Source: Escherichia coli (GTDB lineage Bacteria > Pseudomonadota > Gammaproteobacteria > Enterobacterales > Enterobacteriaceae). From it: a stretch of 64,000 bases of DNA. Below, in pieces: positions 300 to 24,713 of this stretch. The stretch lies in the NCBI GenBank assembly GCA_022969815.1, contig GCA_022969815.1_4535.1, one strand, 5' to 3'. Below the pieces are notes generated by a model that saw nothing but the letters and a program-made list of their open reading frames with translations, was not told where the DNA came from and ran no database searches. Numbering within the stretch: position 1 is the stretch's first letter; each line of letters starts with the position of its first letter. Both the position numbers and the translations under genes were made by a program.

Positions 300-1034
300 T
301 TATGCTCCTGAAGGTTTCAAGGATTCCGCACTTGAGCTTCCGCTCTGAATGTTGCGAACCGTATGGGTGTGGGTATGGAAGCCAATACCATTACCGTCTG
401 TCATCAATCCATTCTGATCAATCTGTAGTCCGTTAATGTTTGCAGACGTGCCTTTGAAAGTCATGACACCACCTGTCAAATCCAGGGTGCCGGAACCGTC
501 TGTCATTGTTATTCCAGAAGGAGTAATATCAATCTTCATTCCTTGGCTATTCCATATAGATATAGTGCCAGAAGGATCGAAAGATGCATACGTGTTTTTG
601 TTATTTGAAATAACTACCTTCTCGGAATCTACTGCTTCTGTTGAATCGGTGCCTGTGGAAATCTTAGGAATAAAGCAAATCGGATATAAACCGCAAGGCT
701 GCATCAATGTAGTCGTTGTGGCTGCTTCTCCAGAAGTTTGCATTGCATTCGAAGGATCTCGTTCAGAGAAAATAACAACACCAATATCACCGGATTTAAT
801 AGGGAAGGAGATACGCCCTGTACCTCCTCCGTTAACCATAAAAGGAACATCGTGGAAGGTTGGATAGTCGATAGAATCTTCTTCTGATCGCGTATTCTTC
901 ACAATGGATTCCAATGTCAGTGTTTTTGCACCGTAGTTAACACCTGTAACTCGCACTGGTAATGAGGTATGCACCTCTGCCAGTTGTTCTGTCATCATGC
1001 CACGCATTGCTGTGACAAAGTTCAAAGCATCCAT
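300..1034 (-). CDS. baseplate central spike protein (gpV-like), putative
   Basis: 244-aa ORF, AGGAAGG RBS, start overlaps stop of upstream gene; Gly/Thr/Ser-rich C-terminal half typical of spike proteins; position directly upstream of gp25-like gene. Confidence 0.35.
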   Translation of the reverse strand: MDALNFVTAMRGMMTEQLAEVHTSLPVRVTGVNYGAKTLTLESIVKNTRSEEDSIDYPTFHDVPFMVNGGGTGRISFPIKSGDIGVVIFSERDPSNAMQTSGEAATTTTLMQPCGLYPICFIPKISTGTDSTEAVDSEKVVISNNKNTYASFDPSGTISIWNSQGMKIDITPSGITMTDGSGTLDLTGGVMTFKGTSANINGLQIDQNGLMTDGNGIGFHTHTHTVRNIQSGSSSAESLKPSGA

Positions 1035-2047
1035 TATTTACCTTCCTTCGTCATAATTGCAGATACAGATACACACTCAACTTCTGTCACCCACTCGCTA
1101 CCTTCCTTGTCCCCGTGATGCGATACAGATACCACTTTAAATGGACCATCATAATCGCGGCTCTTGAGCCAAATGGTTTTTTCAGGTAAGATTGCACCAT
1201 TCATCTGGCATTTGAACTTCACACCGTCTGTAGGTTTCTTGGCTTTCTTAGAAGCTTTAGTCACCTTCTTGGCAGGTTTGATATCGTTGTGGAATGGTTC
1301 TGGGCTTCCTATCAACCCTGTTTCAGGACTGATGTAGGCGCTTCTTGCGTTGGACATTTGAGAACGAGGTGTAACATAAACAGACCCATCTTGAATGGAC
1401 ACGTTATGATCAATACTCTTACAAATGTGTTCCAGGTAGTGTGAAGTATTTCCACACATCGCTGTCGCAGAAGAAAGGGTCTGATCATTATCAATATGAA
1501 TGTTACCTTCTGTTGTCCCAAGATCCTTAACAAGATCTGCAACAACACGTTTTACTTTCGTTCCTTTAGGGTAGCTACGACTGGTACGGGCTTCAGAGAT
1601 GTTGATACCCCCGTCCAGACAATGGAGAACAGTTTTACGATCGACGCTATCAAACGTATCACTTACCCACTGAATTGTACCCTTGAAAATCATAACCAAT
1701 TCTTGCCCTTCGTATCCAACTGCTAAAGCTACTGCCAGGTTGTTACGAATGCCTCGGTTGATGTAGTTTACTGTGTCATCCGACAGGTTGTAAATAGTAA
1801 TCTCCGCCTGGTTAGGATCTTTGTTATTATCTTTCTTGATATTGAAAGTAATTTGATGATGTTCAAGTAGATACAAATTAGAAGAAGATTTTGTAGTGCT
1901 TCCCAATTTAGTATCCAAATCTACTGTTGATTTAAAGGATGAGTTGCTTGTCCTTTTCTGCACGGTATTCGTTGCCGTACCAATCAACAGTTTATATGCC
2001 CTGTTCAGATTGGGAACAGGGGCTTTTGTATATTCTCTTTCTGCCAT
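1034..2047 (-). CDS. baseplate hub-like protein (P2 gpD / Mu gp44-like), putative
   Basis: 337-aa ORF in tail/baseplate block between tape measure and spike; assignment by synteny only. Confidence 0.3.
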   Translation of the reverse strand: MAEREYTKAPVPNLNRAYKLLIGTATNTVQKRTSNSSFKSTVDLDTKLGSTTKSSSNLYLLEHHQITFNIKKDNNKDPNQAEITIYNLSDDTVNYINRGIRNNLAVALAVGYEGQELVMIFKGTIQWVSDTFDSVDRKTVLHCLDGGINISEARTSRSYPKGTKVKRVVADLVKDLGTTEGNIHIDNDQTLSSATAMCGNTSHYLEHICKSIDHNVSIQDGSVYVTPRSQMSNARSAYISPETGLIGSPEPFHNDIKPAKKVTKASKKAKKPTDGVKFKCQMNGAILPEKTIWLKSRDYDGPFKVVSVSHHGDKEGSEWVTEVECVSVSAIMTKEGK

Positions 2048-21651: not shown

Positions 21652-21724
21652 GGTGTCCCGTGCTGGATTCGAACCAGCATCACAATAGTTGTGGATCTCT
21701 TATCCTGTAAGTCTAACGGGAAAC
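21652..21724 (-). tRNA. tRNA-like element, anticodon arm unresolved
   Basis: Canonical T-arm GCTGG-TTCGAAT-CCAGC and acceptor-like 3' end, but no canonical anticodon stem-loop found. Confidence 0.3.
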
Positions 21725-21821: not shown

Positions 21822-22163
21822 TTACCAAGTAACATCATGCCCTGAATGGAAAGCGCAATGACAGTTCTTACAGAGTAAGACGCAATTCTCTATCTCTTTG
21901 TCTATTCTTGCAAGTGACCAGCCACGCATAGATCCGTAGTTCTTATCTTTTATTGCTGGGTCAAGATGGTGAATATCCAAAGATTCTTCATACTGATTAA
22001 ATCCGCAAGCGGCGCACTTACCTCCTAACTTATCACGAGCATATTTTTTCTTATGTTGTCCAAGTTCTGTCGTATACTTATTATGACAGGCTCCACAAAT
22101 AGATTTCTTATGTCCGTAGAATTTCGTAGGATCTTCTTCGCCACAATGACTGCATTTACACAT
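21822..22163 (-). CDS. HNH endonuclease
   Basis: 113 aa; Cys-rich MCKCSHCGEED...CGACHNKY...CKNCHCAFHSGH with zinc-finger/HNH spacing; embedded in tRNA cluster. Confidence 0.55.
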   Translation of the reverse strand: MCKCSHCGEEDPTKFYGHKKSICGACHNKYTTELGQHKKKYARDKLGGKCAACGFNQYEESLDIHHLDPAIKDKNYGSMRGWSLARIDKEIENCVLLCKNCHCAFHSGHDVTW

Positions 22164-22536: not shown

Positions 22537-22626
22537 TTTAATGAAGGGCAACCAGAAGAGGTGTGAGAGAAGGAGAAAACCATGAGTAAAAGAGAAAGTT
22601 TTCTGGCAACCCTTTATTAAATAATT

Positions 22627-22700
22627 TGGAGCGTTCTACGAGTTTCGAACTCGTGCCGCCGACTTGGAAGGACGGAATGCTACCGCTACACCAAGAACGC
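22627..22700 (-). tRNA. tRNA-Gly (anticodon UCC)
   Basis: Acceptor GCGUUCU/AGAACGC, anticodon loop CUUCCAA, T-arm ACGAG-UUCGAAA-CUCGU, encoded CCA. Confidence 0.55.
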
Positions 22701-22929
22701 CCTACATCTTTACTATACTACATTTTACTATCAGTTGTCAATAGTTTTATTGGGCGGGACAGTGACGAGTATCCCATTGGGTGACTAACCCTACGTTCGG
22801 TTGTGATTAATCTCCTGGGTGTCGCTTGCAACACTGGAAAACTCTCACGTCGATGGGAGAATCCGCTTCTTCTTTACCCCATCCAACCCTACTCCGGTCA
22901 AGTTTCAGGTGACTCTTTTTGTGATCAAC

Positions 22930-23260
22930 ACAATACTAAGAACACTGTCTTTCGAGCAGACCTTGTGCACAGGATACGACGATCAATCACAGTGCTCTTA
23001 ATGTTGTGCCACAATAATAAGAACATTCAAACGATGACCACTTTTAGTGGAGAGATTTACAAAATGCTCTTAATGTTGTGTTGTGAATACTAACCTCGGA
23101 ACTCATTACCGCGCTTTGGCTCGACCTTATTACAGGTTAGTGAATGTCTTTCGTCCGATTACATTCAATAAATTTGCTTTCTTCACAACGATAAGAACAC
23201 TTAACAGAAGATAGGTCTGATTGCCTCGGATGATTTCTCAGTAGCCTAAATGTTCTTACC
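22930..23260. repeat. repeat-containing spacer within tRNA cluster (TAAGAACA motif x4, 15-bp direct repeat x2)
   Basis: TAAGAACA at 22937, 23018, 23192 and inverted at 23251; GCTCTTAATGTTGTG at 22994-23008 and 23066-23080. Confidence 0.45.
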
Positions 23261-23268
23261 TGTTATGT

Positions 23269-23344
23269 TGGTGCTCCAAGTAGGACTCGAACCTACGACC
23301 TCATGCTTACAAGGCAAGTGCTCTACCAACTGAGCTATTGAAGC
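23269..23344 (-). tRNA. tRNA-Thr (anticodon UGU)
   Basis: Acceptor GCUUCAA/UUGGAGC, D-arm AGCUCAGUUGGUAGAGC, anticodon loop CUUGUAA, T-arm GUAGG-UUCGAGU-CCUAC, encoded CCA. Confidence 0.6.
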
Positions 23345-23696
23345 GTATTGCGCCCCTTCAGCCATGCTTGATGTTGACCAGAACACAGTTAAACTGTGGG
23401 AGGAGGAACACCGCAGGGGGCTTCAGTTGGACGACTTACAGGGAGCGACCCTGTTTCTTTTCTGGGACTCGGCAGGATTCGATACCTGCAATTCCAGAAG
23501 CCTCTTGGCAACTGAGGGTTTACCTTAACCCTACAAGTCCATAATTCTTAAATACTTTGGAGCCTTACTGATAAACCGTTAGTTTGTAACATAGCGTATT
23601 TCCATTCTGGGGCACCGCCTGTGAATGTAATTCCAATACAAACTTTCTCAAGATCAAACCAATTATCAAATAACATTACAACCTCCAGTTTGAATT

Positions 23697-23780: not shown

Positions 23781-23904
23781 AAAATTGTTTTTAAAGTAGC
23801 CAGTATTCGCGGTACTGACTATGCGGTATCGGAGATGGTGAGAGCCATCTGCCGAAAGTTTACTCTGTTAAAGTAAGAAACAACAAGCTACATTAAAAAC
23901 AACT

Positions 23905-24086: not shown

Positions 24087-24321
24087 ATACATTTAATCTA
24101 ACATAAAACGATGTTGATTGTCAACACCTTTTAAAACATTTTATTATGAATGGTGACTCCACCAACCCCCGTTCTCCACGAACGGTACTCTTCGAGCAAT
24201 CTACCCTTGCAATCAAACGTTGTACACCGTTAGCTTACTCATGCATATTTGCCTCATTCTCTGCCAACCATGATCAGTGGTAGGGTTCAAATCACTTGAG
24301 CTAATTCATACTAAAATGTTC

Positions 24322-24473: not shown

Positions 24474-24684
24474 GTAAATGTGGTAACAGAGACGTTGAAA
24501 GTAGTAGGAAGTAGCTACCATTCCTCGGACGTAAGCCCAACATTCAGCGTAAATGTTCTTGAGCCGAAGCTTTTCCATATGTTCTTTGGTAGCTAACCTC
24601 CGAACAAGTAGCCTCTAACATCTCCCCGATGCAAATCCGTCTTAACAACAGTCAACGACCCTGTTACCACACTTGATAAAGCGT

Positions 24685-24713
24685 ATCTTAACAAAATAAG
24701 ACACGCTTGTCAA
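24685..24713 (-). promoter_or_regulatory. sigma70-like promoter upstream of tRNA cluster
   Basis: Minus strand TTGACA - 17 nt - TAAGAT, located between upstream minus-strand genes and the first tRNA. Confidence 0.45.

Follow-up and report, generated by a model that had tools for sequence, protein, structure and literature searches.

What occupies the long gap between the tRNA-Gly and tRNA-Thr genes in the tRNA cluster of a coliphage carried on the Escherichia coli contig GCA_022969815.1_4535.1 (64,000 nucleotides, in the following the window)? The phage belongs to the genus Phapecoctavirus, subfamily Stephanstirmvirinae (phAPEC8-like coliphages), and its tRNA region is 98.6% identical to that of Escherichia phages phiWec188 and phiWec190, 97.4% to that of 'Pseudomonas' phage PsgM04F and 85-91% to that of phAPEC8-type phages. 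ARAGORN recognised 11 tRNA genes on the minus strand between 21569 and 24473, and the ends it gives for tRNA-Gly and tRNA-Thr set the limits of the gap at 22701-23268 (568 nt). An earlier reading made before any database search (below, the sequence-only reading) had placed it at 22704-23268 and had described it as free of tRNA genes and of credible open reading frames (ORFs), a description that held: ARAGORN made no tRNA or transfer-messenger RNA (tmRNA) call between 22701 and 23268. Our analysis indicates that this spacer very probably is structured RNA. We lean, though not strongly, towards a non-coding array of structured RNA modules in the minus-strand tRNA precursor, which would serve as processing or stability modules or persist as stable by-products.

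Anatomy of the Gly-Thr spacer

The features of the spacer and its two flanking tRNA genes are given in the 5'-3' order that a minus-strand transcript would have:

23269-23344, minus strand: tRNA-Thr (ARAGORN)
23184-23268, minus strand: hairpin A, starting 1 nt past the CCA of tRNA-Thr, stem of ~18 bp
23081-23186, minus strand: module M, between hairpins A and B, closed by GUUGUGAA / UUCACAAC
23101-23138, minus strand: 38-nt motif ACYCATTACCGCGCTTNGGCTCGACCTTATTACAGGTT, inside module M
23009-23082, minus strand: hairpin B, arms paralogous to those of hairpin C, tip unique
23066-23080, plus strand: second copy of the direct repeat GCTCTTAATGTTGTG, which on the minus strand is the 5' arm of hairpin B
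22994-23008, plus strand: first copy of the same repeat, which on the minus strand is the 5' arm of hairpin C
22923-23010, minus strand: hairpin C, stem of about 21-22 bp with one 1x1 internal loop
22886-22910, minus strand: small hairpin P2 (RNAalifold consensus)
22852-22883, minus strand: small hairpin P3 with a purine-rich loop (RNAalifold consensus)
22801-22851, minus strand: variable segment (variable hairpin), in three unrelated versions among relatives (alignment columns about 165-222)
22756-22791, minus strand: two conserved small hairpins, P5 and P6, GGGUUAGUCACCC at 22779-22791 and GGGAUA...UGUCCC at 22756-22775
22712-22741, minus strand: sigma-70-type promoter TTGACA-N18-TATAGT, 11/12 matches (promoter scan)
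22627-22700, minus strand: tRNA-Gly (ARAGORN)

Hairpins A, B and C are three successive long hairpins that are paralogous, and their tips are completely different from each other. The stem of hairpin A is formed by CAUAAC.AGGUAAGAACA and UGUUCUUAUCGUUGUG and carries an A-type tip of ~50 nt, and in hairpin C CACAACA.UUAAGAGCACUGU pairs with ACAGUGUUCUUAG.UAUUGUG below the conserved C-type tip GAUUGAUCGUCGU...GUCUGCUCGAA. Module M contains a small hairpin (23142-23166) and a second hairpin with an 8-bp stem, ACUAACCU...AGGUUAGU (23089-23141). Only 1 nt separates the 3' strand of its closing stem from a hairpin, and the module has no T-loop, D-arm or anticodon loop.

The sequence-only reading had drawn attention to four copies of TAAGAACA and to a perfect 15-bp direct repeat with its copies 72 bp apart. 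All four copies were recovered, on the plus strand at 22937, 23018 and 23192 and on the minus strand at 23251-23258, as was the repeat GCTCTTAATGTTGTG at 22994-23008 and 23066-23080. A variant differing from TAAGAACA by one base, TAAGAGCA, occurs on the minus strand at 22993 and 23065. Sites of the form TAAGARCA number 19 in the window against 6.2 +/- 2.4 expected (none of 100 shuffles reached 19), and six of the 19 fall within a 322-bp part of the spacer. These elements are the arms of the three hairpins on the minus strand: TAAGAACA/TAAGAGCA, TAAGA(A/G)CA, form the 5' arms and TGTTCTTA the 3' arms of A, B and C. The 15-bp repeat, which extends to 21 nt at 90% identity, is the 5' arm common to B and C (minus-strand form CACAACAUUAAGAGC). 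The 72-bp spacing of its copies therefore reflects the length of an indel that is specific to the lineage and lies between paralogous arms.

A CRISPR-like (clustered regularly interspaced short palindromic repeats) or tandem array of at least three regularly spaced direct repeats was not found, as the 15-21-nt repeat has two copies. We also rejected the TAAGAACA copies and the 15-bp repeat as separate signals or regulator sites, because the copies are complementary or paralogous hairpin arms which pair with one another and covary. Stable RNAs, processing signals, regulator binding sites and decayed tRNA genes had all been offered as possible contents of the spacer; the sequence proved to be non-coding, conserved and structured at the RNA level, and regulator sites dropped out.

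Conservation within Phapecoctavirus

In most Phapecoctavirus genomes the Thr-Gly spacer has a length of ~313 nt and consists of hairpin C right after a differently sequenced tRNA-Thr, followed by P2, P3, the variable segment, the two small hairpins and the promoter. Judged from the alignment, this unit, tRNA-Thr directly followed by hairpin C, P2-P6 and the promoter, is ancestral and genus-wide. Hairpin A and module M are inserted between tRNA-Thr and hairpin C in the lineage formed by the window, phiWec188/190, PsgM04F, SF1-1 and DE16, and the extra 72 nt of hairpin B are present in the window alone. In the closest relatives these 72 nt (23009-23080) are missing; the alignments show that phiWec188 and PsgM04F join both 16-nt repeat copies directly. 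For the tip of hairpin B no match was found in 50,697 phage records or in IMG/VR. The lineage of the window may have gained A and M through recombination with the hairpin array of another phage, and hairpin B may have been gained by this phage alone, most simply via recombination within the common arms.

Comparing the window with Schickermooser and Ro121c4, the 133 nt of hairpin C and P2/P3 are 97.7-99.2% identical and the tRNA genes 95-100%, while the flanking coding sequences and other spacers reach only 74-82% (flanking genes about 81%). The comparative alignment that had been proposed from the sequence thus did find conserved structured segments in related phages, and instead of a lack of conservation, which would have spoken against the sequence-only reading, hairpin C and P2/P3 are conserved at the level of tRNA genes. 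A search of IMG/VR for further Phapecoctavirus copies of the conserved block yielded one contig.

RNA structure

All four modules fold 3-10 kcal/mol better as minus-strand than as plus-strand RNA. The values are -24.5 versus -15.4 kcal/mol for hairpin A and -21.7 versus -17.4, -21.1 versus -17.8 and -31.8 versus -21.8 kcal/mol for the remaining three; RNA structures containing G-U pairs should show such a bias towards the minus strand, whereas DNA cruciforms should not. Every substitution in the stem of hairpin C within the genus is G-U compatible on minus-strand RNA.

Across phage families, the C-type tip sits on three stem classes (the Phapecoctavirus type, the prophage/SCNJ1-C type and the PJ16/Bas79 type), and the PJ16/Bas79 stem is almost entirely different in sequence. 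In the alignment of C-type hairpins, which comprises nine related sequences, 96.5% of the cells are paired, and in six pairs, with 18 cells, both sides are changed. The covariation score was 0.358 compared to 0.181 for shuffles (none of 500 as high), and slid-register controls gave at most 0.107. Covariation of the C-type hairpin across families is suggestive support for an RNA stem, though no definitive proof.

Paired changes were also observed in other modules. The stem of hairpin A shows compensatory A-U to G-C changes in nithesis and UPM2146, and the small-hairpin stem of module M, GAAUGU/ACAUUC, becomes GAGUG/CACUC in KpCHEMY26, where both strands are changed and still pair. In P3, two sequences carry a double change from G-C to A-U, and P2 switches between U-G and C-G in five. 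The small hairpins at 22756-22791 are retained even in the more distant Stephanstirmvirinae phage Tr1, in which the first one differs on both strands.

Predicted transcription of the spacer

The spacer had been thought to be co-transcribed with the tRNAs from a promoter at 24685-24713. The promoter scan recovered this site (24713-24685, minus strand, TTGACA-17-TAAGAT with an upstream TG), but the account is incomplete, as two further minus-strand promoters, at 22741-22712 and 24124-24095, score equal to or above it. The first of these ends 11 nt before the mature 5' end of tRNA-Gly, and its hexamers are identical in 12 of 13 relatives, ZCKP1 diverging there. By its match to the consensus, the final 40 nt of the spacer is predicted to be a conserved sigma-70 promoter for tRNA-Gly. 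The scan predicted no minus-strand terminator between 24095 and 22701, and no terminator-like site (GC-rich hairpin plus U run) was found on the minus strand in 22701-23268, where the sequence downstream of hairpins A, B and C is A/C-rich. The small hairpins at 22756-22791 were considered as an intrinsic terminator and rejected because no U run follows them.

Homologous hairpins in other phages and prophages

Hairpin A is 88-94% identical to segments in Gamaleyavirus (N4-like), Klebsiella Taipeivirus (Ackermannviridae) and several ~47-kb siphoviruses, and hairpin C is 82-86% identical to segments in the siphoviruses SCNJ1-C, PJ16 and Bas79. Elements that are near-identical to hairpin C, apart from the stem class, were also present in 11 E. 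coli prophages and 17 IMG/VR contigs. Taken together with its flanking arms, module M shows 84.5% identity over 142 nt to a syntenic hairpin-M-hairpin array of the Klebsiella N4-like phage KpCHEMY26. In every case examined, wherever annotation exists, the hairpin elements lie on the same strand as the adjacent tRNA or tRNA-like genes.

The 38-nt motif inside module M reaches further. Compared directly, it is 95-97% identical to sequences of T4 (NC_000866, about 64859-64896) and of the rV5-like phage FV3 (JQ031132, 62586-62623), and additional records of Tequatrovirus, Vequintavirus and Gelderlandvirus match it too. The FV3 copy is intergenic and lies upstream of the tRNA cluster, and the T4 copy overlaps the first 18 codons of vs.8 as annotated (covering codons 6-18), right after denV; because vs.8 has an in-frame ATG directly downstream of the motif, its start may be mis-annotated and the motif non-coding. 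The motif is not an appreciable fragment of a vs.8 gene in the window, as tblastn of T4 vs.8 gave just these 38 nt with a stop codon right upstream. A link to an HNH endonuclease was rejected as well, the 113-aa ORF adjacent to the motif in FV3 being unrelated to the HNH ORF of the window.

The spread of the hairpins could also be explained by selfish or recombinogenic DNA cassettes, similar to miniature inverted-repeat transposable elements (MITEs), which would be shuffled between co-infecting phages via their inverted arms and have no RNA function. Near-identical C-type hairpins indeed occur in at least three flanking contexts among the 17 contigs and 11 prophages, one constant stem carries exchangeable tips (A, C, PJ16, Bas79 and KpCHEMY26 types), and the A+M block is found in just some relatives. 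Hairpin B (72 nt), missing in sister phages, is bracketed by 16-nt direct repeats; however, this apparent duplication is made of the paralogous arms of hairpins B and C, and the multiple copies and target-site duplication of a MITE were not found. All 11 E. coli genomes bearing the C-type element have it at a single site, so there is no sign of proliferation, and no transposase is associated with it. Moreover, the G-U pairs and the energy bias favour the transcript strand, unlike in a DNA cruciform. PJ16 and Bas79 keep the tip on a different yet complementary stem, which argues that pairing and not arm sequence is selected. We regard DNA cassettes as an unlikely explanation.

Repetitive extragenic palindromic elements and the bacterial interspersed mosaic elements built from them (REP/BIME), enterobacterial repetitive intergenic consensus (ERIC) sequences, MITEs and the promoter-plus-stem-loop (PeSL) cassettes of T4-type phages are likewise short inverted-repeat modules which occur in many contexts and have been linked to modular shuffling. 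In contrast to REP/BIME, ERIC and PeSL elements, the hairpin element is single-copy per genome, has no promoter-plus-stem-loop architecture and has arms that covary for the pairing of one strand.

In E. coli prophages we observed non-coding stretches of ~800-900 nt between the portal and terminase genes, on the opposite strand (loci L032, 2025-2935, and L033, 2142-2990; also L020, L022 and L024). They all carry a TTGACA promoter of their own as well as a C-type hairpin, pieces resembling tRNAs, a DicF-like 3' hairpin and a strong terminator. One tRNA-like piece is annotated as 'pseudogenic tRNA-Gly' by the Prokaryotic Genome Annotation Pipeline (PGAP). The DicF-like hairpin of L024 scores 27.9 bits with the Rfam DicF model, and no Rfam family covers the prophage stretches. 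Some phage records bear non-enterobacterial host labels that look doubtful, as the sequences are near-identical Phapecoctavirus or T4-like ones: Pseudomonas phage PsgM04F (OR584014), Acinetobacter phage ABPW7 (OP562383) and Campylobacter-named records.

A tmRNA-like element in enterobacterial phages

In nithesis, SCNJ1-C, PJ16, Bas79, UPM2146, KpCHEMY26 and one IMG/VR contig, homologous hairpins adjoin a conserved, promoter-proximal segment whose tag frame, GCA AAC GAx ... GCx GCx TAA, is of tmRNA style. The tags read ANDDVILMAA, ANEDRFLMAA, ANDDVVLMAA and ANDNTFLAVA, each followed by stop codons. All seven tag loci gave sub-threshold matches to Rfam tmRNA (22-34 bits versus a gathering score of 47), and ARAGORN at default settings made no call on the tmRNA-like loci, which were delimited as follows:

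L004, ~1380-1760, minus strand: tmRNA-like locus
L011, ~1000-1408, plus strand: tmRNA-like locus
L012, ~1020-1700: tmRNA-like locus
L034, ~1400-2290: tmRNA-like locus
L035, ~1230-1690: tmRNA-like locus
L013 and L036: tmRNA-like loci

The tag module alone matches 543 phage records; among the matches listed, all are unannotated or lie under a 'hypothetical protein' feature. In the literature, searches on phage tmRNA-like RNAs yielded nothing relevant except a phage tmRNA list from 2014, which holds mycobacteriophages and Bacillus phage G exclusively.

Hairpins A and C and module M are 82-91% identical to elements beside tag frames in N4-like phages, Ackermannviridae, Nonanavirus and siphoviruses. 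By this comparison, the spacer hairpins are homologous to the structural arm of phage tmRNA-like RNAs. The standard tmRNA gene order carries pseudoknots PK2-PK4 at the corresponding place, and the hairpins beside phage tag frames would, from this established architecture, be their positional equivalent. In the two prophage regions read, the hairpins are not within a tmRNA-like RNA, unlike in the phage genomes examined. The tmRNA-like element, found in N4-like phages, Ackermannviridae, Nonanavirus and ~46-kb siphoviruses, has its own promoter, the tag frame, the exchangeable-tip hairpins and an acceptor-like closure GUUGUGGUG...CACCACAAC(CCA). Its order in KpCHEMY26 is apparently that of a circular permutation, since a loop resembling a T-arm (UUCAACU) precedes the tag on its upstream side.

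The spacer itself is not a tmRNA, because the window has no tag and no tRNA-like domain. Neither a regex scan nor BLAST searches, for which four tmRNA-like sequences of phages served as queries, found a tag module with resume codon in the tRNA cluster of the window, the hairpins alone matching. Neither the conserved 5'/3' motifs of the tmRNA-like elements nor an Rfam tmRNA signal was found in the window, and an ARAGORN tmRNA search of it at lowered threshold (-ps80) gave only implausible 'permuted' calls overlapping tRNAs or a 42-aa ORF.

The homology to the structural arm nevertheless raises the possibility that the spacer is the remnant of a tmRNA-like or tRNA-like gene, a leftover arm whose tag and tRNA-like domain were lost and which would persist with no function of its own. 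In the seven phage loci, which come from several families, the hairpins adjoining the tag frame share one constant stem and bear A-, C- or other tips. Pairing of the GTTGTGG arm with a downstream CCACAAC(CCA) is possible as in an acceptor stem, exactly where one E. coli prophage has the 'pseudogenic tRNA-Gly', and degenerate tRNA-like pieces lie near the spacer in the window (21654-21722 and 23463-23540). No tag-like frame and none of the conserved tmRNA-like 5'/3' motifs remain in the window, however, and the hairpin C block is conserved like the tRNAs beside neighbours that have diverged to ~81%, a pattern that points to selection and not to decay. A remnant seems improbable to us. The decayed tRNA gene of the sequence-only reading fares in a similar way: the CACAAC/GTTGTG closing stems are acceptor-like and the topology of module M is tRNA-like, but the constraint is strong and does not indicate decay.

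Proposed role of the RNA modules

For the array of structured RNA modules in the tRNA precursor, the following route appears plausible. The array would be transcribed together with the tRNAs from the upstream promoters, and RNase P and 3'-end processing of the flanking tRNAs would free stem-closed RNAs. A long irregular stem of ~21 bp, 1-2 nt past the CCA, could act mainly in cis, as an endonuclease entry site and as a barrier to 3' exonucleases. The hairpins may also insulate the neighbouring tRNAs from misfolding, and the products might remain as stable small RNAs comparable to species I/II of T4. We give even chances to the formation of discrete stable products, and only tentatively suggest processing or stability in cis as the primary role.

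Two small RNAs of T4, rnaC and rnaD (species I and II), presumably arise through tRNA processing, and their roles are unknown (PMC3014915). Literature searches for a function of rnaC/rnaD yielded nothing further. They resemble the modules in being non-coding structured RNAs of ~100-140 nt by phage tRNA genes and on the tRNA strand, and the neighbouring spacer of the same operon holds a true homologue of rnaD (see below). The Gly-Thr modules differ from them in being long simple hairpins with exchangeable tips, not the rnaD fold, and in being known here from sequence alone; neither rnaC nor rnaD of T4 has sequence similarity to the Gly-Thr spacer. A second likeness is to RNase III stems (rRNA operon spacers, the R sites of the T7 early region and the DicF precursor), which also are irregular stems of ~20 bp flanking stable RNAs in a polycistronic precursor; all long spacers of this tRNA operon are closed by stems of that kind. 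The predicted stems of hairpin C (21-22 bp) and hairpin A (~18 bp) have the length of about two helical turns of double-stranded RNA that RNase III uses. They show no sequence similarity to characterised sites, and three tandem stems would be unusual for a simple processing site.

Several observations speak against functional RNA modules in the precursor. No Rfam family, including tRNA (RF00005) and tmRNA (RF00023 clan and the permuted RF04321), was found in the gap by cmscan to E<=10, run on a 5-kb region and on the gap alone; the covariance-model scan that had been proposed earlier (Rfam, together with ARAGORN) recognised only the tRNAs of the cluster and nothing inside the gap. Within the genus, variation is too low for covariation, with a double change in one of 55 pairs, and the covariation test of C-type hairpins rests on the nine related sequences mentioned above. 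Hairpin B and the A+M insert are dispensable, and because relatives do without them, part of the array may be passenger sequence. The promoter before tRNA-Gly is a consensus match, and promoter-like sites in the region number 9 compared to 8.1 +/- 2.9 in shuffles. A literature search found no transcriptome of any Phapecoctavirus, and no experimentally defined RNase site matches the spacer.

Instead of acting in cis, the modules might be trans-acting regulatory or decoy RNAs, whose tips attach to a factor of the host or the phage, for example an RNase, the ribosome or a defence protein, or pair with target RNAs. The conservation of the tip sequence across families even where the stem is replaced, the conservation at tRNA level and the association of the hairpins with tmRNA-like and DicF-like RNAs in other genomes are in line with this. 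As no Rfam match exists and the tips of A, B and C are completely different, we consider a trans-acting role quite unlikely.

That the plus strand encodes a small protein in antisense to the tRNAs is very improbable: the 96-aa ORF 22803-23093 is the longest open frame in the spacer, stays open after the in-frame 72-nt difference in PsgM04F (annotated there as two hypothetical coding sequences) and has counterparts in antisense frames of 63-77 codons that are open in all 13 relatives, but such frames are open because the sequence is near-invariant, and we rejected the candidate as its GTG start has no Shine-Dalgarno sequence and lies in a segment replaced by unrelated sequence in relatives, the conserved block is crossed by a 1-nt deletion (KKP3954) and a 2-nt insertion (ABPW7, tuntematon), and no Pfam match was obtained.

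Returning to the RNA modules, stable non-tRNA RNAs in phage tRNA clusters are already known from T4; distinctive here are the constant stem with exchangeable tips, the spread across families and the link to the tmRNA-like element. Rfam does not contain the hairpin family, none of the records inspected annotates it, and no description was found in the searchable literature. It is a speculative thought, and one we hold to be rather unlikely, that the hairpins represent an undescribed, horizontally exchanged, modular family of phage RNAs, in which a constant stem presents interchangeable tips as functional ligand or decoy modules against host factors of translation rescue, RNA cleavage (RNases) or defence, and not as simple processing signals. 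Members of such a family may occur free-standing in tRNA operons and also form the structural arm of the widespread, unannotated phage tmRNA-like RNA whose tag is of the ANDxxxLxAA type.

Phage tRNA clusters are usually annotated as tRNAs and 'spacer', and here part of the spacer is as conserved as the tRNAs. The modules are candidates for new small RNAs of phages or for processing elements, for which coordinates, structures and covarying pairs are now available, and they extend the 50-year-old puzzle of the T4 species I/II RNAs to other phage groups. The tmRNA-like element is apparently unannotated in hundreds of enterobacterial phage genomes and, if functional, bears on how phages handle ribosome rescue. 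If the modules are mere processing scaffolds, they would be useful for annotation and of modest wider interest.

Other features of the tRNA cluster

Besides the Gly-Thr gap, the sequence-only reading had listed other long spacers of the cluster as unaccounted for. Of these, the Thr-Tyr spacer (23345-23696) is now largely explained by the first three of the following features:

23347-23462, minus strand: homologue of T4 rnaD (species II RNA, a stable RNA known from experiments), immediately 5' of tRNA-Thr in the Thr-Tyr spacer
23463-23540, minus strand: tRNA-like cloverleaf, recognised by its fold and not called by ARAGORN
23548-23676, minus strand: 42-aa ORF having a strong ribosome-binding site (GGAGG), annotated in phiWec188 and PsgM04F as a hypothetical protein
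24124-24095, minus strand: second internal promoter (scan)

The rnaD homologue has 26/29 identities to T4 rnaD (E=3.5e-4) with compensatory changes, and a full-length local alignment and a similar fold were obtained. To Tequatrovirus records, including 'rnaD: species II RNA' of T2L, it is ~81% identical over 82-89 nt (E down to ~1e-14). Because it is present in just some Phapecoctavirus genomes (the window, phiWec188, PsgM04F, MirsaeidiM_Esher1 and ABPW7), its distribution suggests that a small-RNA gene moved horizontally between T4-like and phAPEC8-like phages. The cloverleaf next to it consists of an acceptor stem of 7 bp, a D-like arm, an anticodon arm of aberrant form and a T-like loop of 8 nt. 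Every Phapecoctavirus genome examined has it, at 93-97% conservation. For the 42-aa ORF no Pfam match was found.

Long terminal stems (17-30 nt) close the leader (24474-24684) and the Arg-Ser (24087-24321), Ser-Tyr (23781-23904) and Gly-Gln (22537-22626) spacers. The Gly-Gln spacer, 90 nt on the minus strand, is 98-100% identical across the genus and forms one long hairpin. Its pyrimidine-rich loop (CUCCUUCUCUCACACCUCUUC) resembles the anti-Shine-Dalgarno end of 16S rRNA, which makes it a candidate small RNA.

Between tRNA-Met and tRNA-Ile, a weak tRNA-like match (21654-21722, minus strand; Rfam tRNA 21.3 bits, below threshold) is 93-100% conserved and probably represents a degenerate or non-canonical tRNA. 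An HNH endonuclease ORF of 113 aa (21822-22163, minus strand; Pfam HNH and HNH_2) lies between tRNA-Ile and tRNA-Pro. Since these two tRNA genes are only 6 nt apart in phiWec188, the tRNA cluster has probably been invaded here by a homing endonuclease of the free-standing kind.

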